Assembly (NCBI GenBank): GCA_024696005.1
Contig: JAILHF010000035.1
Coordinates: 28,440-92,439 of the forward strand
Length of the DNA stretch: 64,000 nucleotides
Reading direction: 5' to 3'
Source: Lachnospiraceae bacterium
GTDB lineage: Bacteria; Bacillota; Clostridia; Lachnospirales; Lachnospiraceae
The translations under genes were made by a program, and so were the position numbers. Position 1 is the first letter of the stretch. Every line of letters begins with the position of its first letter. Under the pieces are notes generated by a model. The model was not told where the DNA came from. It made no database searches and saw nothing but the letters and a program-made list of their open reading frames with translations. Shown here one piece after another: positions 1 to 15,324 of the stretch.

Positions 1-1958
1 TTGATGGAATGGGCGATGACGGCGTAATTCTGCATGTCCTCTTTCTCATAGAAATCCTGGAGCAGATTCGGAAGGTTGGAGGAAGCGTAGGTCCTGAGCA
101 GCTCGATGTAGGCCTTGACGTTCCCCGCGCAGTTGCGCACCCCCGTATTGGTGTCGATCCCGTCCAGCCGGTCGAGCATCTGCTCCGGCGTGAGGTTCTG
201 CATGGAAAGGGCCGCCTCCCTGCGCTCCACTTCCTCGATCGGCGTTCCTGCCGGGAAGAGCTTCTCACGCGGCAACCACTTTTTCAGCATCACCGCCAGC
301 TGCTCCACACGGATGGGCTTGGGCAGATAATCATTCATGCCCACTGCCAGAAACTGCTCCTCCACGCCCTTGATCGCATTCGCCGTCAGGGCGACGATGG
401 GCACTCTTGCCGCGTATTCGTTGTTCATCTGACGGATCAGGCGCGTGGCCTCCATGCCGTCCATGAAGGGCATCATGTGATCCATGAAGATCAGGTCGTA
501 ACGCACCAGCTGCTGCGAGACCTTGTCGATCACTTCCCGCCCGCTCTCCGCCTGGGCCGCATTGATCCCGAAGATGCGCATGAGCTCCTGCGCGACCTGA
601 CGGTTCACCTTGTTATCATCCACGATCAGCACGCGGGCCTTGGGGGCGATGAAATCCGGCCGGAAGCTGCTGCGGACCTGGGCGGCCGCCTGATGCTTCA
701 CGCTGAAGTTGCTCGGCGTCACATCATAGATCTTCTGGGGCAGGACCACCGAGAAAGTCGAACCGAAGCCCAGTTTGGAGGTCACGTGGATCGAGCCGTT
801 CATGGCATCGGTCAGGCTCTTGCAGATGGCAAGGCCCAGACCGGTTCCTTCCACGTTCCGGTTCTTGCGCGTATCAATCTGTCCGAATGCCGTAAACAGC
901 TTGCTGATATTCTCTTCCGAGATACCGATACCGGTATCCTGCACGGCGATCGTCATGCGGCCGCGCTCCATGTTGTACATGGCGCTCTCGTCACGCCAGT
1001 TGATCCCCAGGGTCACGGTACCCTGGTTCGTGAACTTCACCGCGTTGGTCAGGAGGTTGATCAGGATCTGCCGGATCCTGGTCTCGTCACCGATCAGCTT
1101 GGTAGGCACATGGGAATCGATCTCCAGCTGCAGGCGCAGGTTCTTGTCGCGCATGCGGAACTCGATGATGGTGATCACATCCTGCAGCATCTCGTTGAAG
1201 TCGTAAGGTTCCTCCACGATCTCCATGCGACCCGAATCGACCTTGGAGAAATCCAGGATCTCGTTGATGATGGAGAGCAGATTTTCGGAGGAGCGCTTGA
1301 TCACCGCAACATATTCCTTCTCCTCGGGCTTGAAATTCCGCTCCTCCAGAAGCTCGGCCATGCCGTAGATGGCGTTCATCGGGGTACGGATCTCGTGGCT
1401 CATGTTCGCCAGGAAATTGCTCTTTGCTTCCAGGGCTTCCCGCGCGACCTCGTTCTGCTCATCCATTTCCTTCTTGTACTTCGCCACGCTGTAGCAGGTA
1501 AAGACAAGGGCTACGCCGGAAAATGCGTACATGGTGATGAACGCGACGTACTGGCTCGTGTCGAAGAATACCTCGATCACTTCCTTCTGCAGGATCCCCA
1601 TCAGGACCAGGATCACGATCGTCAGCGAGAAATAGCCGATCAGCGCCTCCTTCATCAGAAAGAGGGTCAGCGTCGTGGCCGATGCCAGGAAGGTAAAGAC
1701 CAGCATGCCCTGCGTATGGGAGGCGTAGCTCATGTAATAAAGGGAAGAGATGCCCGAAACGCCCAGGCAGTAGACCACCACCTTCTGGTTGTTGATCTTA
1801 TAGGAAAGAAGAAAAACGATCAGCACCGGGATCAGACCCAGAGCCACGACAAAAGCACGTTCCACGCCGTACTCCGAGACCGTGTAAATGGCCTGGAGCA
1901 GCACGGAGCACAAAAACTCCACGATAAAGACTGTGATGTTCGTTTTAAAAGGCAGCAT
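1..1958 (-). CDS. hybrid sensor histidine kinase / response regulator with HPt-like tail (partial; 3' end runs off the left edge)
   Basis: Absent from the ORF track because it has no stop in the window. My minus-strand translation from ATG 1958 reads MLPFKTNITVFIVEF... It shows several TM helices, an H-box NMSHEIRTPMNAIYGMAELL, a G-box GTGLGLAICKSL and a receiver RVLIVDDNKVNRQV...FMDHMMPFMDGMEATR. An HPt-like ...NYAVIAHSI sits at the edge. The start codon abuts the upstream stop (TAA then ATG). Confidence 0.85.
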   Translation of the reverse strand, partial: MLPFKTNITVFIVEFLCSVLLQAIYTVSEYGVERAFVVALGLIPVLIVFLLSYKINNQKVVVYCLGVSGISSLYYMSYASHTQGMLVFTFLASATTLTLFLMKEALIGYFSLTIVILVLMGILQKEVIEVFFDTSQYVAFITMYAFSGVALVFTCYSVAKYKKEMDEQNEVAREALEAKSNFLANMSHEIRTPMNAIYGMAELLEERNFKPEEKEYVAVIKRSSENLLSIINEILDFSKVDSGRMEIVEEPYDFNEMLQDVITIIEFRMRDKNLRLQLEIDSHVPTKLIGDETRIRQILINLLTNAVKFTNQGTVTLGINWRDESAMYNMERGRMTIAVQDTGIGISEENISKLFTAFGQIDTRKNRNVEGTGLGLAICKSLTDAMNGSIHVTSKLGFGSTFSVVLPQKIYDVTPSNFSVKHQAAAQVRSSFRPDFIAPKARVLIVDDNKVNRQVAQELMRIFGINAAQAESGREVIDKVSQQLVRYDLIFMDHMMPFMDGMEATRLIRQMNNEYAARVPIVALTANAIKGVEEQFLAVGMNDYLPKPIRVEQLAVMLKKWLPREKLFPAGTPIEEVERREAALSMQNLTPEQMLDRLDGIDTNTGVRNCAGNVKAYIELLRTYASSNLPNLLQDFYEKEDMQNYAVIAHSI

Positions 1959-3167
1959 TTATTTTGCGGTAAATCTGCGCAGCTCCGGCAAAAGCTCCTG
2001 AAGAGCCTTTATCGTGGCCGCCAGCTCCTTCTCCGTTGTATCGATCGAAAAGGAAAAGCGGAGCGTTCCTTCCAGCTGTTCCTTCTTCAAACCTATGGCC
2101 TGCAGGGTACGGGACGGTTCCGGCTTGTGCGTCGCGCAGGCACTCCCTGCGGATACATAGATCCCTTTTTCCTCCAGGGCATGCAGAAGCACCTCCGCAC
2201 GCACCCCGCGGAACGAGGCGCTTACGATATGGGGCGCCGTTTCCGAGATCCTTGCCTCCATCTGCCACATGTCCTCGGGATTGTCCGCCCGTCCGTCCTT
2301 CATTCCGGGTATCCCGTTGATCCGAACATTCTCCAGCCGCAGCAGTTCCTTGACAAAACCCGTCTTCAGGCTGTAAAGGCGCTCGCGGTCCGTCTCCAGA
2401 TCCTGGGAAAGCTTCTCGGCTGCCAGTGCCATGCCCACGATCCCGGGAACATTCTCCGTTCCCGAGCGCAGTCCGTTCTGCTGGCCGCCTCCGAAGATGA
2501 TCGGAGCGATGCGCTTTCCGGACGCGACATAGAGCAGTCCCACGCCCTTCGGTCCGTGTATCTTGTGGGAACTGACGCTCATCAGATCCACTCCCAGCTC
2601 CTTCGGATAGATGCGCGCCTTGCCGAAGCCCTGTACCGCGTCCACATGAAAGAGCGTCCTGGGGTATTTCCGTTTCAGAAGAGCCCCGATCGTCGCGATC
2701 GGCTGAACGGATCCGATCTCGTTGTTCGTATGCATGATCGAGAGCAGGACCGTATCTTCGGAGATCGCGCGTTCCACGCTTTCCAGGCTCACCAGTCCGT
2801 CCTTGTCAACGGGCAGGTAAGTCACGTCATAGCCCTCATCCTGCAGCTGTTCCATCGTGCGCAGCACGGCCGGATGCTCGATCACCGTTGTCACGACATG
2901 CATCCCGTTGCGTTTACCCGCGCGTGCAGCTCCGAGGATCGCAAGGTTGTCGCTCTCGGTCCCGCCGGACGTAAAGATCAGTTCCGACGGCTGGCAGCGC
3001 AGCTGCGAGGCAAGGCTTTCCTTTGCTTCACGGATACGTTTCTCCGCCACCACGCCCAGATGATGGGCACTGGAGGGGTTGCCGAAATCCGTGCACATGA
3101 GCTCCGTCATGGCTTTCGCCGCTTCCGGGAAGCAGCGTGTCGTTGAGGAATTATCCAGATAGATCAT
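1959..3167 (-). CDS. cysteine desulfurase (NifS/IscS class V aminotransferase family)
   Basis: 402 aa, MIYLDNSSTTRCFPEAAKAM...FGNPSSAHHLG...SVSSHKIHGPKGVGLLY (PLP-Lys motif)...SAGSACA. SD AAAGGAG precedes ATG 3167. Confidence 0.9.
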   Translation of the reverse strand: MIYLDNSSTTRCFPEAAKAMTELMCTDFGNPSSAHHLGVVAEKRIREAKESLASQLRCQPSELIFTSGGTESDNLAILGAARAGKRNGMHVVTTVIEHPAVLRTMEQLQDEGYDVTYLPVDKDGLVSLESVERAISEDTVLLSIMHTNNEIGSVQPIATIGALLKRKYPRTLFHVDAVQGFGKARIYPKELGVDLMSVSSHKIHGPKGVGLLYVASGKRIAPIIFGGGQQNGLRSGTENVPGIVGMALAAEKLSQDLETDRERLYSLKTGFVKELLRLENVRINGIPGMKDGRADNPEDMWQMEARISETAPHIVSASFRGVRAEVLLHALEEKGIYVSAGSACATHKPEPSRTLQAIGLKKEQLEGTLRFSFSIDTTEKELAATIKALQELLPELRRFTAK

Positions 3168-3178
3168 AAAAGCTCCTT

Positions 3179-3937
3179 TCAGCTTTCCAGCTGATAGCCG
3201 ATCATGGCAAGCAATGCCATGCCGGCCGTCTCGGTCCTGAGTATTCTGCGCCCCAGCGAGATCGGCTGCGCTCCGGCCTGTTCGGCCCGCGATACCTCTT
3301 CCCGGGAAAAGCCGCCTTCCGGCCCGATAAAGATCCCGAGACGGGGTTCTCCCCCCATCTTCGCCACCTCACAAAGACGCTGCATGAAAGCCCTGGTCGC
3401 TTCCATCCCCTCCGCAAGCTCGTAGGGGATCACCGCCAGCTCCATCTGCGAAGCAAGCGAAAGCGCCTCACCCAGGTTCATCAAAGGAGCGATCTGCGGG
3501 ATCCTGCCCCGACGGCTCTGCTTGGCTGCCGCTTCGGCGATCGCCTGCCAGCGCTCCTGTTTTTTTGCGTATTTCTTCGCATCCAGCTGCACAACGCAGC
3601 GTTCCATCGAAACCGGGACGATCTCGGACACCCCCAGCTCGACCGTCTTCTGCACGATCAGCTCCATCTTGTCCGCCTTCGGCAGTCCCTGGAAGAGCGT
3701 GATGCGCACCGGCAGCTCCACCGCGTTTTCCTTTATGAAACGCAGGCTGCAGATCACTTCGTCCTCCGTGATCTTTTCGATCCCGCAGCGGTATTCCTTA
3801 TCGTCCGTCCCGTTGCTCACCGAGATCTCCTCGCCCGGCCGCATGCGAAGGACGTTCCGGATATGGTTCACATCCTCACCGGTGATGCGGATCTCCGTCC
3901 CGCTGATCTGCGCGGGATCCACAAAGAAATGATTCAA
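3179..3937 (-). CDS. rsmE: 16S rRNA (uracil1498-N3)-methyltransferase RsmE
   Basis: The family-typical N-terminus NHFFVDP... and C-terminus GPEGGFSREE...LGRRILRTETA are both present. I prefer the TTG at 3937, which has SD GGGGAG 6 nt upstream and forms a TTGA overlap with the prmA stop. The track start ATG 3964 would overlap prmA by 31 nt. Confidence 0.85.
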   Translation of the reverse strand: MNHFFVDPAQISGTEIRITGEDVNHIRNVLRMRPGEEISVSNGTDDKEYRCGIEKITEDEVICSLRFIKENAVELPVRITLFQGLPKADKMELIVQKTVELGVSEIVPVSMERCVVQLDAKKYAKKQERWQAIAEAAAKQSRRGRIPQIAPLMNLGEALSLASQMELAVIPYELAEGMEATRAFMQRLCEVAKMGGEPRLGIFIGPEGGFSREEVSRAEQAGAQPISLGRRILRTETAGMALLAMIGYQLES

Positions 3938-4905
3938 GGCTTTCTCCCCGTGACGCAGCGCCATTCTCCCTGCGCGAGAGTTTCCGTGACCTCAAAGCCG
4001 GCCTGACGCATCGCCTCCGCCACATCGCCTTCACGGCCCTCGATGATGCCGCTCGTGATCACGATCCCGCCGCTCTTCAGATGCTTTATCAGCTCGGGCA
4101 TCAGAGGGATCAGTACCTCCGCGAGTATGTTTGCCACCGCGATATCGTAATCCCCGCCCGCTTTCTTCTGTATCCCGGGATCGTCGATGATGTTTCCGAT
4201 CAGCAGGGAGAAACGCTGCGGATCGATCCCGTTCTTCTGCATGTTATCGGCAACCGCCGGAACCGCGCAGGGATCCAGATCCGTCCCCAGCGCTTCCTTC
4301 GCGCCGAACATGAGAGCCAGGATCGAAAGGATCCCGCTTCCCGTGCCCACGTCCAGTATCCTTGTTTCGGAATTAACGTGTTTTTTCAGCTGTCTGATGC
4401 ACAGCTGCGTTGTTTCGTGCATGCCGGTTCCGAAGGCCGTTCCCGGGTCGATGTGCAGGATCATGCGTCCCGCATCCTCCGGCGTCTCCTGCTCCCAGGA
4501 AGGGATCACCAGCAGATCGTCGACCGTAAAACGGTGGAAGTACTGCTTCCAGTTATTGATCCAGTCCAGATCCTCCGTCTCCGAGACCGTAACCCGGCCG
4601 CTGCCGATCTCGCACCAGACACGCGTCTCGGCAAGCTGAGCCTCGATCTTTTCCAGAGTCTCCTTCTTCAAAGCCTCTTTCGCCGCCTCATCATCAGGGG
4701 CTTCCACAAAAAAGCTCAGCCAGGCGATCCCGTCATCCTCCTGAGGCTCAGGCGGGATATCCACAAACATCTGCTCCTTTTCGAGAGGCGTGAGAGGAAG
4801 TTTATCCTCGATCTGCGCCCCCTCCAGTCCGATATCATACATGTCACTGACCAGGATATCCTCAGCATCCGTCAGTGTTTCGATCGAAAATCTGAGCCAT
4901 TTCAT
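3934..4905 (-). CDS. prmA: ribosomal protein L11 methyltransferase PrmA
   Basis: 323 aa, MKWLRFSIETL... with the SAM motif ILDVGTGSGILSI and NILAEVL. SD AAGGGGAG lies upstream. Confidence 0.9.
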   Translation of the reverse strand: MKWLRFSIETLTDAEDILVSDMYDIGLEGAQIEDKLPLTPLEKEQMFVDIPPEPQEDDGIAWLSFFVEAPDDEAAKEALKKETLEKIEAQLAETRVWCEIGSGRVTVSETEDLDWINNWKQYFHRFTVDDLLVIPSWEQETPEDAGRMILHIDPGTAFGTGMHETTQLCIRQLKKHVNSETRILDVGTGSGILSILALMFGAKEALGTDLDPCAVPAVADNMQKNGIDPQRFSLLIGNIIDDPGIQKKAGGDYDIAVANILAEVLIPLMPELIKHLKSGGIVITSGIIEGREGDVAEAMRQAGFEVTETLAQGEWRCVTGRKP

Positions 4906-4984
4906 AGCATCGTCTCCCCTTTTCGCAGTTCATTTTATAATAGCAAAAAAACAGTCTCCACGCAAGCTGAAGAGGCATTCTTCT

Positions 4985-5395
4985 TTACCGTCAGATTGCT
5001 GTTCGGAGAGCGGTTTTGGACGAATGGTTTCGTTCGCTGGACGGCTTAGCTGGATGATGGGAATGTTTGGTGTCGAGCAGAAGTACATAAGTCCGGGCAC
5101 CACTCCGGAGCCACGCAGCTCTAAGGCGCTGCTTTCATTTTGGGTACAGCCCGGGACCGCTCGAGACACAGCATCCCTGCTGTGGCTCTCGCTCGATCCG
5201 CCATCCGTGGCGGCTCGTCCCTTTTCCCATCATGCAGCTTCAAGAGCTGACGGGCTCCTCCGCGACGTGCCCGGCCCTTATGTCTTCTGCTCTTTACGCC
5301 GGCTGTTTCGTTCATCCCGCAAAGCCGCATGCTCACTGCACGGCCGGTGCTTGGCCGGGCTGAGTGATGAACTTGTCGGGAGCAGCCCGTTTATG
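4985..5395. ncRNA. unclassified highly structured RNA candidate (216-nt rod at 5076-5291 plus flanking hairpins)
   Basis: No credible ORF. The arms 5076-5100 and 5267-5291 are complementary over ~23 bp. The helix continues inward through five more nested helices to a three-way junction. A 10-nt interior/exterior complementarity links 5224-5233 with 5054-5063. The element is bracketed by the tRNA-Cys terminator and a prmA promoter-like site. The strand is not resolved because all pairs are Watson-Crick. Confidence 0.4.
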
Positions 5396-5401
5396 ATTGA
5401 C

Positions 5402-5438
5402 AAAAAAAGAAAAGATCCCGAATATAGTCTTCGGAATC
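5402..5438 (-). terminator. intrinsic terminator of the tRNA-Cys unit
   Basis: On the minus strand: GAUUCCGAA-gacuaua-UUCGGGAUC followed by UUUUCUUUUUUU. The single non-WC position is a U-G wobble on the minus strand and a C-A mismatch on the plus strand. That supports minus-strand function. Confidence 0.85.
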
Positions 5439-5446
5439 TCTTGGAG

Positions 5447-5517
5447 AGGTGCCAGACGGATTTGAACCGCCGATCAGGGAGTTGCAGTCCCACGCCTTAC
5501 CACTTGGCTATGGCACC
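5447..5517 (-). tRNA. tRNA-Cys (anticodon GCA)
   Basis: Reverse complement: GGTGCCA-TA-GCC..GGC-..GGGA-CTGCAAC-TCCC..GGTTCAAATCC..TGGCACC-T. It folds as a cloverleaf with a 7-bp acceptor stem, GCA in a 7-nt loop, a T-loop GGTTCAAATCC and a U73 discriminator typical of tRNA-Cys. CCA is not encoded directly after the discriminator. Confidence 0.9.
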
Positions 5518-5530
5518 ATCACAAAGCATA

Positions 5531-5558
5531 ATTATACTGATTTTCCCGCTTCTGTCAA
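5531..5558 (-). promoter_or_regulatory. consensus sigma-A promoter for tRNA-Cys
   Basis: Minus strand: TTGACA (5558-5553), a 16-nt spacer, then TATAAT (5536-5531), ending 13 nt before tRNA position 1. Confidence 0.7.
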
Positions 5559-5559
5559 G

Positions 5560-7122
5560 CTATTTTCTGCGCTTTTTCCCTTTTCGCGCCCCTTTCCCGT
5601 CCGTGGCATAAGCGACGATCGCCCCGGCCGAAAGTGCTACCAGACCGGAACCGATGAAGAGTGCCACATAGTCGATCTCCTTTTCCCGGGCTTCCTTTTC
5701 CTCCGGGAGCTCCTCCTCGGCCTCTTTCGCTCTGGCCTTCGCAGCCCTCCGTTCTTCCTCCAGACGCGCTTCTTCCGCCAGTCTTGCCTCCTCCGCCAGA
5801 CGGGCTTCTTCCGCAAGCCTTGCTTCCTCGGCCAGGCGCTCCGCCTCCAGGCGGGCCTGCTCCTCATAGGTAGTGATGTTATCCAGCATGTCATTGCCGC
5901 TGTCCGCGCCAACGTTGCTCCGGTAAAGCCCGAACTCCGCGCAGTTGATCTGGGAGGCCTTCGGGTCATTGGGATCGTCACTCACATAGAACCACCAGCG
6001 CTGCTGGGATTCATGCTTCTTGTAGGCCAGCTTCATGGTTTCCACTGCGGTCTCCCCCCCGAAGGCCTCCAGGGGCTGACGCAGATCCAGGGTGAGCGGA
6101 TTCTCTTTGTACAGATGATAATACGTCTTGGGCGTATCCCACAGGCCGTATTCCTCTGCGGACTGCGGATAAAAATCCTCCTCCATGCCGTGCTCCACCG
6201 AATCCTGCACGCACACTGCCAGAAGCTTGTGGCCGCCGTGCCCGTATTCCCCGTTAAAATCCTGGGAGATCACCACCTGGGGCCTGAAACGCCGTACCTG
6301 CGCCACAAAGAACTCCGTGATCGCTTTACGGTCATAAACGCGCTCCGCCTCCTCCAGACTGCCGGCGTAAATGTCGTCAAAAGGCGCGTTCACCGGGTAA
6401 TTCCGTACTCCCATGGTCCAGAGCCCGTCCAGCTTTTCATGTTCACGTACGATCTGCCCGTCCCAGTAATTCGTCATGTAGACCACCTGGCAGGCCAGCC
6501 CCTGGCCGCCGGCATAGGTCGTCAGCACACCGCCAAGAAACAGGACCTCATCATCCGCATGCGTGGAAAAGACCAGAAAATCCGCCGCCTCACAGGCCGG
6601 CTTCCAGACCTGGATATCCGCGGGAGGCTGTCCTTCCGAGAAGGTTTTGATTTCGCAGAGGTTTCCGCCGGAAGGAAAGACAAGCTCGCAGCTGCCGATA
6701 CCGCCTTCCTCAATATAAACATAGTCATGCAGAAAGCCGTTTCTGCCGCAGCTCATCTCCTGCACATTCCCGCCGCCATCCGTATAGCGAAGCGTCCACT
6801 CCTGCGGAATGCGGTACCACTGCAGATAAAGCCCTCCGATGCTCTGCCCTTCCGGGGCAGTGACCGTGAGGGTCTCGCCCTCGGCCAGCTTGACACTGCT
6901 GTAATAGCTTACGTCCTTCAGATAGCCCGTGCCGTTCCCGCTGCTCAAAGCATAGCCGGCATCCAGCTGCACGGCTGTTTTCGTTTCCGCCTCCTGCGTG
7001 CTTCCTTCCTCCTCCTCTTCCGCGGCCCGGGCCGCAATGGGCAGGAACAGGCAGGATAATATGATGCACAGGGCAAGGGCCTGGAGCATTCCCGCTCTGC
7101 CCGTCTCCTTAAACTTTCTCAT
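5560..7122 (-). CDS. PIG-L/LmbE-family deacetylase with signal peptide, coiled-coil stalk and C-terminal membrane anchor
   Basis: 520 aa. The N-terminal signal is MLQALALCIILSCLFLPIAARA. The PIG-L core reads FLVFSTHADDEVLFLGG...VVISQDFNGEYGHGGH. An (AEEARL)n repeat follows, then a TM segment YVALFIGSGLVALSAGAIVAY and a KGKKRRK tail. Confidence 0.8.
   Translation of the reverse strand: MRKFKETGRAGMLQALALCIILSCLFLPIAARAAEEEEEGSTQEAETKTAVQLDAGYALSSGNGTGYLKDVSYYSSVKLAEGETLTVTAPEGQSIGGLYLQWYRIPQEWTLRYTDGGGNVQEMSCGRNGFLHDYVYIEEGGIGSCELVFPSGGNLCEIKTFSEGQPPADIQVWKPACEAADFLVFSTHADDEVLFLGGVLTTYAGGQGLACQVVYMTNYWDGQIVREHEKLDGLWTMGVRNYPVNAPFDDIYAGSLEEAERVYDRKAITEFFVAQVRRFRPQVVISQDFNGEYGHGGHKLLAVCVQDSVEHGMEEDFYPQSAEEYGLWDTPKTYYHLYKENPLTLDLRQPLEAFGGETAVETMKLAYKKHESQQRWWFYVSDDPNDPKASQINCAEFGLYRSNVGADSGNDMLDNITTYEEQARLEAERLAEEARLAEEARLAEEARLAEEARLEEERRAAKARAKEAEEELPEEKEAREKEIDYVALFIGSGLVALSAGAIVAYATDGKGARKGKKRRK
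5752..5847 (-). repeat. in-frame 18-nt tandem repeat encoding EAERL(AEEARL)x4EEE
   Basis: The DNA unit ttcc(t/g)c(c/g)gccag.c..gc is reiterated. It translates to LEAERLAEEARLAEEARLAEEARLAEEARLEEE. Confidence 0.8.
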
Positions 7123-14050: not shown

Positions 14051-15324
14051 TGGTTCTCTTTCACGATATTATCGTAGATCCAAAGCAGCATTTTGTAGTT
14101 GGCTTCCCGGTCATAGCTGAGCATCGCGCGCTTCCTGCCGGCCAGCCCCAGTTCTTTTGCCGCTTCCCTGTCCTCAAAGATCGCGGAGACTGCCTCTGCG
14201 ATCCCCTTCGCATCGCCGGGCTCCGTGAAACGCACTTCCCCCTCCGAAGCCTGCGACGGAATGCCGCCCACACGGCTCGCAACGCAGGGCATGCCGAGCA
14301 TCATGGCCTCTCCCAACGAGTTGGGCGAATTCTCGACAAAAGACGGAAGGACGTAGACTGCCGATGAGAGATAAAGCTCCTTCATCTGCACGTCCTTCTT
14401 CTGTCCCACATAGCGGACCGCATCCTGCAGACCGTGACGGCGGATCTGTTCCCGCAGATATTTCCCGTAACCGCAGCGTTTCAGCGCGTCCATCGGGCCG
14501 TTTCCGCGCAGGATGTTGTCCCCCGCGACGGTCAGCGTAACATCCGGATAGCGTTTCCGCAGGATCGCGAGCGCCTCGATCATCACATGCGCCCCCTTCA
14601 GCGGGATATTGCCCTGGGACATCACGATCGAATGCGGACTGCAGGCCTCTGCATCCCACATTCCTTCGTAAAAACAGCTGCGCAGCGTCTCGTTGCAGGC
14701 AAAATAGCTTCCGTCCGGATGATGCTTCGCGAAGTATTCCTTGTCAAAAGCCGTGCGCCCGCAGGCGTATTCCGCAAGCGCAAGCGCTTCCGACTCGTTA
14801 ACGGCTCTTCTTTCGTATTTCTCCTTTTGCATCGCAAGGCTGTCCCTGCGCAGCACATCGCGGAACGTGGCCCGTTCCGTGACCTCCGCGGGAAGCCCGC
14901 CGAAATAGGCGTCCGTGCAGGGCTGCATGAGGCCCTGCAGATGGACCAGCGTGCGCTTCTTCCATTCATCGATGCGGAGCATGGCCAGTGTGTGCGGGAA
15001 TTCGGTCCCGTAAACGTGGATCACGTCGGGCCGGTATTCCTCGCAGATCCTGCCCAGGGACGCGACCAGCGCCGCATCATAGTTTTCCGGATGTGCGGTA
15101 TCCTCGATAAAGCCGAAATATTCCAGCCCCCGGACCTTCCCGTGCAGGTTCTCCTCCTGCAACAGGGGAAAGGCGACAGCCAGCTGCAGGCCGTCCGCTT
15201 TGGCATGCTGCAGCACACATTCCATGGCGCCGGCGACCCAGCCCTCCTTATTGGAACGCTTCCTGCGTATCACGTCCGCCACCATGGCCGGCACGAGATT
15301 GCTGATCCACAATATCTTCATCAT
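14047..15324 (-). CDS. glycosyltransferase family 4 (GT-B)
   Basis: 425 aa, ...VYVLPSFVENSPNSLGEAMMLGMPCVASRVGGIP. It has an ATGA overlap with the downstream gene. Confidence 0.8.
   Translation of the reverse strand: MMKILWISNLVPAMVADVIRRKRSNKEGWVAGAMECVLQHAKADGLQLAVAFPLLQEENLHGKVRGLEYFGFIEDTAHPENYDAALVASLGRICEEYRPDVIHVYGTEFPHTLAMLRIDEWKKRTLVHLQGLMQPCTDAYFGGLPAEVTERATFRDVLRRDSLAMQKEKYERRAVNESEALALAEYACGRTAFDKEYFAKHHPDGSYFACNETLRSCFYEGMWDAEACSPHSIVMSQGNIPLKGAHVMIEALAILRKRYPDVTLTVAGDNILRGNGPMDALKRCGYGKYLREQIRRHGLQDAVRYVGQKKDVQMKELYLSSAVYVLPSFVENSPNSLGEAMMLGMPCVASRVGGIPSQASEGEVRFTEPGDAKGIAEAVSAIFEDREAAKELGLAGRKRAMLSYDREANYKMLLWIYDNIVKENQ

Follow-up and report, generated by a model that had tools for sequence, protein, structure and literature searches.

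Our finding that a structured element upstream of prmA in a Lachnospiraceae contig matches the Rfam model RF01731 over its full length identifies this element as a clear copy of the known TwoAYGGAY family, in its Bacillota form, and not as a new class of RNA. Comparison with related loci indicates that the copy in the window (by which we mean the whole stretch of 64,000 nucleotides that was analysed) is a lineage-specific insertion between the terminator of a tRNA-Cys gene and the promoter of prmA. Judged from their sequences, related copies look MITE-like, being palindromic dispersed repeats with inverted termini and flanking direct repeats that occur in several contexts. With moderate confidence we lean towards reading the element as a TwoAYGGAY copy carried on a palindromic MITE-like insertion, whose RNA would act in trans as a decoy for a protein, most likely CsrA. 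We infer the role at the RNA level, and the insertion at the DNA level is shown by comparison.

The family assignment is based on a match at 5265..5100 on the minus strand, which scores 90.2 bits (cmscan, Rfam 15; gathering score 43; E-value 2.7e-14), covers model positions 1–168 and is, apart from tRNA, the sole match in an Rfam 15 scan of the whole window; on the plus strand, RF01731 yields no match at E ≤ 10. The sequence-only reading had left the element unclassified, had considered a possible new class or kinship to ROOL and GOLLD, and had itself stated that a confident Rfam match in a cmscan search would make the element a known one. Since precisely such a match was found, and over the full length of the model, the element is already known and not novel. 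In the region 4900–5560, ROOL, GOLLD, raiA, OLE, HEARO and 6S give no match at E ≤ 10 with permissive filters, and other Rfam families give only chance-level matches at this threshold. A covariance model of our own (R1), built from an alignment of seven independent lineages gathered in this analysis, assigns 125 bits to the window copy and finds nothing else in the 64 kb. In the same alignment 24 of the 33 predicted pairs keep pairing despite two-sided changes, so that covariation in homologs, which had been suggested as a check, is indeed present. The description of TwoAYGGAY, published in 2010, drew on human gut metagenomes, Clostridiales and Gammaproteobacteria, and the discoverers of the family rated it as probably an RNA that is neither cis-regulatory nor a riboswitch (Weinberg et al. 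2010, PMC2864571); the structure has been refined with R-scape in Rfam 15. The source organism belongs to the Lachnospiraceae, as do all of the nearest PrmA loci, and hence falls within the published host range. The window copy shares with RF01731 the full-length match, two adjacent hairpins with GGA loops, a multi-part basal stem and a Clostridia host. It differs in that (i) the middle helix of the consensus is replaced by a GCUGC/GCAGC pairing, (ii) loop 2 reads AGGGAU, its second position being a purine as in other high-scoring copies, and (iii) an extra complementarity of 15/16 nt is present which other copies do not have.

On the minus strand, the best-delimited structured unit in the region is a rod of 288 nt (5041–5328) with a folding energy of −149.2 kcal/mol (z −8.5), a stability attained by 0 of 200 shuffles; for 5040–5320 the corresponding values are −137.5 kcal/mol and z −6.9 relative to shuffles. 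The dense minus-strand structure claimed from the sequence is thus borne out. The span of ~400 nt proposed earlier (4985–5395) exceeds the element, which measures about 288 nt; the flanking hairpins at 5334–5400 and 4940–5016 fold no better than shuffled sequences do (z −1.2 and −1.5, respectively). It is probable that 5041–5328 represents the extent of the inserted palindromic unit, comprising the core and an elongated basal stem. The core (5100–5265, minus strand) consists of stacked basal helices, a symmetric 3×3 GGA/GGA internal loop located between the two lowest core helices, and a three-way junction with two hairpins. The inner helices and both tip hairpins are found as they had been read, that is, CCGCC-ACGGAU-GGCGG and CACAGC-AGGGAU-GCUGUG. 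The loop of tip hairpin 1 (5203–5208, minus strand; ACGGAU, closed by CCGCC/GGCGG) fits AYGGAY exactly, and the AGGGAU loop of tip hairpin 2 (5173–5178, minus strand; closed by CACAGC/GCUGUG), as well as the combination of ACGGAU and AGGGAU, also occurs in copies scoring 100–111 bits.

Outside of the core, the 5′ arm (5267–5291, minus strand; AGCAGAAGACAUAAGGGCCGGGCAC) and the 3′ arm (5076–5100, minus strand; GUGCCCGGACUUAUGUACUUCUGCU) of the outer 23-bp helix form 8+7+8 Watson-Crick pairs interrupted by two small bulges, which substantiates the arm pairing proposed earlier. This helix and its weaker continuation lie beyond the RF01731 model, and the rod as a whole contains 45 pairs outside of the Rfam core, of which 1 is a G-U pair. 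The two strands of the element fold about equally well, and an assignment of the strand from folding energy was thus uninformative. Given this equal foldability, and an outer stem that is nearly all Watson-Crick, the rod would form equally well in single-stranded DNA. The minus strand carries three short overlapping ORFs, and none of five overlapping ORFs in the region has a Pfam match at E ≤ 0.1, in agreement with the earlier view that there is no believable ORF.

A long stem is found in every homolog that was folded, with 32–74 pairs beyond the Rfam model and 0–6 G-U pairs among them. The rods measure 323 nt in L011, 303 nt in L068, 325 nt in L116 and 249 nt in L095 (labels with L denote the related loci and contigs), and 234–331 nt in a group of gut-metagenome copies; in L095, some 10 nt separate the end of the rod from the ribosome-binding site of a glmM-like gene that follows. 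The sequences of the outer stems are unrelated between lineages and could not be aligned with MAFFT, so that folds for each lineage were used instead. The elongated basal stem is a Firmicutes trait of the family that has already been reported: Bacillota TwoAYGGAY RNAs were described as having an elongated basal stem and as being devoid of the Pseudomonadota extension (Li et al., bioRxiv 10.64898/2026.09.22.753630), and a paper from 2015 had already pointed out that the Rfam model can be continued by one more external stem. When compared with the extended Pseudomonadota form (10.64898/2026.09.22.753630), the window copy likewise possesses the core, structure beyond the Rfam model and signs of a mobile-element-like spread. 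It has, however, only the long stem, and neither the three extra hairpins nor the conserved 3′ pseudoknot of that form. The Pseudomonadota form also carries GMTBT repeat arrays on its 5′ side and REP arrays on its 3′ side.

The extra complementarity of the window copy involves an interior segment at 5224–5239 (AGCUGCAUGAUGGGAA, minus strand) and a 3′ outer-strand segment at 5048–5063 (UUCCCAUCAUCCAGCU, minus strand), which match in 15/16 nt. The sequence-only reading had seen a pseudoknot-like pairing of 5224–5233 with 5054–5063. The complementarity itself is real, since only 1 of 300 dinucleotide shuffles attains 15/16 nt and it is thus not due to chance; as a conserved pseudoknot it had nevertheless to be rejected, because the seven other homologs contain no equivalent pairing between interior and flank and because the pairing cannot form in cis as long as the rod is intact. 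The 3′ segment lies 12 nt past a rod of ~45 stacked pairs, a linker too short to bring it to the interior loop. According to the minimum-energy fold, 5048–5063 pairs instead with its alternative partner, the 5′ outer strand (~5312–5331). At best, then, the 15/16-nt pairing is an alternative pairing specific to this copy or a relic of the origin of the palindrome. A second, inverted partial copy was considered as the source of the complementarity and was discarded: the weak repeat I3 (72%) is not colinear, and blastn adds nothing. The direct repeat GAACGAAAC does occur on both flanks (5027–5035 and 5305–5313), as had been noted, but 27% of shuffles contain direct repeats of this length (9 nt) or longer, which places it at chance level; since it also does not abut the inverted termini, it was rejected as a target-site duplication.

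Upstream of the element on the minus strand lies a tRNA-Cys (GCA) gene at 5446–5517, identified by its tRNA match. Its sigma-70-type promoter at 5531–5558 (minus strand; TTGACA-16-TATAAT, 12/12) is the sole strong promoter upstream of the element, and a terminator-like hairpin at 5400–5442 (minus strand; 13 pairs and a long U-tract, −15.5 kcal/mol, z −3.4) stands between this promoter and the element. This agrees with the complete tRNA-Cys unit that had been recognised from the sequence. Downstream, prmA (ribosomal protein L11 methyltransferase; PF06325, 249 bits) occupies 3934–4905 on the minus strand, such that the element is co-oriented with prmA and located 135 nt upstream of it. Between the two, at 4932–4960 (minus strand), the previously proposed prmA promoter-like site is present but weak (9/12). 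A consensus scan of the minus strand between 5400 and 5329 revealed no sigma-70-type promoter. The rod end has no U-tract, and a U7-bearing hairpin downstream of it does not surpass shuffles in stability. Considering that the terminator appears competent and that no promoter was found between it and the rod, the window copy may be silent. Adjacency to a tRNA gene was considered as a trait of the family and rejected: the other confirmed copies do not lie beside a tRNA gene, the nearest tRNA, in L099, being ~5.5 kb away. Homologs of csrA and fliW were not found within the 64-kb window.

In three syntenic relatives with PrmA proteins 75–77% identical (L001, L003, L004), tRNA-Cys is followed by a terminator and then by prmA, and the spacer between tRNA-Cys and prmA comprises only 54–99 nt, as compared with 540 nt in the window. 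TwoAYGGAY has no match in these three spacers and is likewise absent from L146–L149, the top PrmA matches (79% identity where an identity is reported); the closest PrmA in the protein database is also 79% identical. It is because the nearest relatives have short spacers without the RNA that we consider the window copy to be a lineage-specific insertion. At 75–79% PrmA identity the spacers are unalignable, so that the exact edges of the insertion are unreadable from them, and the only other contigs from the same species as the window, L081 and L145, break off either at 5104 or while still upstream of the element, and so bring no further information. The ‘long PrmA’ of L146 was examined as a potential hidden upstream element and turned out to contain an insertion inside of the protein. 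No target-site duplication was detected at the rod in the window, by strict or by relaxed criteria, and near-identical copies of the window element were found neither in plasmids and phages nor in a pattern scan of metagenome contigs. With no second TwoAYGGAY copy in the 64-kb window, the case for mobility of the window copy comes from comparison only.

Related copies extend this comparison. The metagenome-contig pattern scan returned 63 stretches, and 20 loci were scanned; TwoAYGGAY was confirmed in 11 of these 20, and our own model confirmed several more. In a group of gut copies, 12 contigs share one unit of ~300 bp, the copies being at least 95% alike, which has no fewer than five distinct left flanks and three distinct right flanks, and one and the same assembly contributed three of these contigs. 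Direct repeats of 6–8 bp adjoin the inverted termini without a gap in four independent insertions: TACAATAC (8 bp) flanks the 323-bp element of L011, an Acetatifactor MAG, GTAACAG (7 bp) the 306-bp element of L117, TTTTTAT (7 bp) the 289-bp element of L098 and L086, and (A)TTATAT (6–7 bp) the 311-bp element of L099. In shuffled flanks, this end signature appeared in at most 1% of trials. L068, L116, L095 and L106 have no flanking direct repeat, and L110, L128 and L139, whose two flanks stem from different loci, have no duplication; the latter is what is expected if the repeats are real. The termini themselves differ between lineages (GTAACAG, GATGTTG and GATTCAG). The GTAACAG ends of L011, together with its 8-bp duplication, may resemble the ends of the IS66 family. 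A link to phages was not supported: 63 pattern matches in viral contigs are about what chance predicts, and only one full copy, L211, was among them.

The L117 locus provides a view of the same site in ten further strains of the gut species, all of which possess a 306-bp element with the same termini and the same flanking GTAACAG. At identical coordinates, the core lies on one strand in five strains (151–157 bits) and on the opposite strand in the other five (115 bits). The flipped interior is ~16% diverged, with 84% identity to the reverse complement, and the flanks are almost identical; in hairpin 1, the stem GCAGC/GCUGC of one allele becomes GCGGC/GCCGC in the other. A −10-like box (CTATAWAC) accompanies the AYGGAY strand in the gut-group copies, the inverted allele included. 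The most economical account of the orientation polymorphism would be replacement or conversion by a family member that aligned in flipped register via the inverted arms. A simple inversion had been looked for in the first 12 gut-group contigs and discarded, as no left flank matched a right flank, and the polymorphism surfaced only with more strains. An empty site was not seen at locus C of the gut group.

Copy-number variation of TwoAYGGAY and its links to REP arrays have been reported in Pseudomonas (10.64898/2026.09.22.753630). In the literature searched we found no paper that joins TwoAYGGAY to MITEs, REPINs or transposable elements, and the main text of the preprint (10.64898/2026.09.22.753630) makes no mention of target sites or inverted repeats. 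The present comparisons contribute concrete signatures in Firmicutes: the duplications, the several contexts and the presence of both orientations at one site. It is at the level of the family that the residual interest lies, namely in the flanking duplications, the polymorphism in orientation and the repeated occurrence upstream of prmA, which go somewhat beyond the literature searched. We offer the following proposal tentatively, as one that may well need revision: Bacillota TwoAYGGAY would be the conserved cargo of palindromic MITE-like elements of ~290–325 bp, which insert into AT-rich intergenic DNA with duplications of 7–8 bp, have their interior swapped or flipped at sites that are kept, and have landed repeatedly upstream of prmA. 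The window copy would be one such insertion, and the family would constitute a mobile gene whose RNA titrates a protein (CsrA-type), and not a fixed regulatory RNA. If confirmed, TwoAYGGAY would be either an RNA gene that is mobile or a transposon of palindromic form whose interior is conserved to an unusual degree, which would sharpen the focus both on CsrA binding and on the enzyme that mobilises the element.

How might such an RNA act? Transcription of the minus strand would yield a rod that holds two GGA loops ~30 nt apart; for the window copy, such transcription would be possible only via read-through of the tRNA-Cys terminator. The two loops could then together offer a platform to an RNA-binding protein that acts as a dimer, most probably CsrA, which the RNA would titrate in trans as a decoy, with no regulation of prmA being involved. 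The consensus obtained by SELEX for CsrA is RUACARGGAUGU. Both CACGGAUG and CAGGGAUG are located in hairpin loops and resemble a CsrA site. In a motif analysis TwoAYGGAY was a strong match for the motif that CsrA binds and was proposed to be a CsrA-binding sRNA of Clostridia (PMC4333381), and the idea of a CsrA sponge is repeated in the preprint (10.64898/2026.09.22.753630); a demonstration of CsrA binding by TwoAYGGAY was not found in the literature searched. Action in trans is favoured by the free orientation of the element relative to neighbouring genes.

The main rival to the decoy reading, which we regard as appreciably less probable though deserving of serious consideration, is that the element is selfish palindromic DNA in the manner of MITEs or REPINs, with the hairpin mattering as DNA, its conserved tip being recognised by a transposase or recombinase that is provided in trans, and any RNA being incidental. 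It owes this standing to the near-perfect stems and the equal foldability of the two strands, both of which suit a palindrome at the DNA level: the very long stems with 0–6 G-U pairs in 32–74 resemble the outcome of DNA-level copying more than that of selection on RNA. The 6–8-bp direct repeats at inverted termini, the several contexts and recombinant flanks, the occurrence of the core on either strand at one locus, the missing promoter of the window copy, and the copy-number variation and REP-array links described for Pseudomonas (10.64898/2026.09.22.753630) are all in keeping with it. However, the fold of the interior and the AYGGAY loops, which are strand-specific, have been kept across phyla with compensatory changes and the termini vary, which is the reverse of what is seen in ordinary MITEs. 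Moreover, the −10-like box CTATAWAC moves with the AYGGAY strand in the gut group, and no transposase is linked to the element. We retain the decoy reading as the preferred one.

It is considerably more doubtful that the element serves prmA as a cis-regulatory leader, such as a 5′ UTR that binds a protein or a ligand. Such a role would be suggested by the Rfam type label of RF01731 (‘Cis-reg’) and by the co-orientation of the window element with prmA at a distance of 135 nt, and the placement of the L095 rod just ahead of its glmM-like gene could be read along the same lines. Among 85 Lachnospiraceae prmA loci, comprising the window, L001–L080 and L146–L149, TwoAYGGAY is present in three (window, L011 and L068), in each case intergenic and immediately upstream of prmA. 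The neighbour on the other side differs, being tRNA-Cys with a PIG-L gene in the window, a GH25 enzyme in L011 and a DUF4474 protein in L068. The association with prmA is suggestive and not established, the P value being roughly 0.01–0.1, depending on the copy number per genome; for L011 and L068 no empty sites were found. What argues against a leader is that the RNA strand is directed away from prmA in L011 and L068, that 82 of the 85 prmA loci are devoid of the element, that prmA is near none of the metagenome-derived copies and that a promoter-like site separates element and prmA in the window. Furthermore, both orientations occur at one fixed site in the gut group, and the discoverers of the family rated it as not cis-regulatory (PMC2864571). 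It is highly improbable that the element represents a new class among the large ornate non-coding RNAs, related to ROOL and GOLLD: among bacterial non-coding RNAs it is large, its structure is dense and a tRNA gene lies beside it, but it matches with confidence a family described in 2010, lacks any match to ROOL or GOLLD at E ≤ 10, and what lies beyond the Rfam model simply lengthens the basal stem, as was already noted for TwoAYGGAY. A decayed pseudogene or protein-coding remnant, to which the three short overlapping minus-strand ORFs could point, is the least credible reading of all, as there is no Pfam match at E ≤ 0.1 and a covarying fold of RNA type accounts for the whole region.

If the window copy is indeed a decoy on a palindromic insertion, two kinds of known systems invite comparison. 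Like CsrB, RsmY and RsmZ, it exhibits GGA motifs in hairpin loops at a spacing that would suit a CsrA dimer, and a decoy function has been proposed for TwoAYGGAY (PMC4333381). In contrast to these RNAs, it offers two loop sites only instead of many, has no identified promoter or regulator and resides on a palindromic repeat; the likeness is only a functional analogy and does not imply membership. RNA-bearing MITEs, for example MITEPpu9 with its sRNA gene ssr9 (PMC12288879), and REPINs (PMC3116915) share with the element that they are short and non-coding, have inverted ends, occur in multiple contexts and carry an RNA gene as cargo, and flanking direct repeats are a further common feature in several related copies. 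The differences are that the window copy has no duplication, that the termini vary and the interior is conserved, and that no partner transposase is known. REPINs are not known to make duplications of 7–8 bp. With respect to copy number, non-aeruginosa Pseudomonas groups contain a median of 11–23 copies per genome, as compared with the one copy in the 64 kb analysed here.

Direct repeats of 6–8 bp immediately abut the inverted termini of the TwoAYGGAY element (Rfam family RF01731) in the Lachnospiraceae prmA locus L011 (1091-1429; TACAATAC) and in metagenome contigs of the gut group, which share one ~300-bp unit, namely L117 (GTAACAG), L098 and L086 (both TTTTTAT), and L099 (TTATAT). These repeats are a target-site-duplication signature, and no report of such a signature for the TwoAYGGAY family was found in the literature that we searched. 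No duplication is present at the ends of the element in contigs L110, L128 and L139, where its left flank derives from one locus and its right flank from another; these mixed flanks reflect either dispersed copies that have recombined or chimeric assembly through the repeat.

The element of L117 (about 3680-3985) occupies the same site in ten further strains (L213-L222; about 1372-1677, or 1328-1633 in L214 and L222), and neither its position, its length of 306 bp, its termini nor the GTAACAG beside it varies among them. The TwoAYGGAY core lies on the plus strand in five of these strains and on the minus strand in the other five, and the flipped interior exhibits ~16% divergence, while flank identity is about 99–100%. 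L214 and L222 carry an additional insertion of ~44 nt, starting TTTTGACCTC and located ~100 nt downstream of the element; since its sequence recurs as the right terminus of locus A/B elements, it may represent a solitary terminus fragment.

On the 5' side of the 30-bp stem of gut-group elements we identified a −10-like box, CTATAWAC (in L099 at about 14070-14095, where it reads TGCTATAAT and constitutes an extended −10), located 7–10 nt ahead of the point where pairing in the perfect stem begins. Because this box accompanies the AYGGAY strand, the inverted allele included, it may be an internal promoter of the gut-group element.

Three copies were found among 85 Lachnospiraceae prmA loci (in the window at 5041-5328, in L011 at 1099-1421 and in L068 at about 2640-2940), all of them intergenic and directly upstream of prmA; the second neighbour is different in each case, and both orientations are seen. 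At L146 (1932-3269), the PrmA homolog P0002 comprises 445 residues versus the usual ~323, and an upstream element was rejected as the source of the extra length, which arises from an insertion inside the protein. In the window copy, nucleotides 5224-5239 of the core interior are complementary to 5048-5063 of the 3' outer strand at 15 of 16 positions, which is statistically unusual, yet confined to this copy. The sequence-only reading had regarded a shorter version of this pairing as pseudoknot-like; a cis pseudoknot is excluded with the rod intact, the two being incompatible.

Beyond these loci, contigs L095, L097, L101 and L112 represent a single locus of a rumen lineage, in which the rod follows a glycogen-phosphorylase-like gene and precedes a glmM-like gene, ending ~10 nt short of the latter's ribosome-binding site. 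The copy in L141 is diverged (53 bits) and lies in a different context. Viral contigs gave 63 pattern hits, of which the only convincing copy is that of the IMG/VR contig L211 (3663-3825), a full-length, gut-group-like copy scoring 142 bits with our covariance model R1; the contig is 6 kb long and classed as viral, and no clean duplication surrounds the copy.

A 1045-residue open frame on the plus strand of the window (9-3146) is antisense both to a class-V aminotransferase gene (1959-3167, minus strand) and to a gene running past the window's left end, and is almost certainly a GC-rich artefact and no gene. Upstream of tRNA-Cys, the window encodes a PIG-L-domain protein of 520 residues (5560-7122, minus strand), the C-terminal part of which carries consecutive EEARLA-type repeats, after which come a hydrophobic segment and a basic tail. 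Further Rfam matches in the comparison loci are a THF riboswitch (L053, 1989-2093), a Clostridiales-1 RNA (L065, 4824-4996) and two cobalamin riboswitches (L087, 5822-5936 and 9064-9303).
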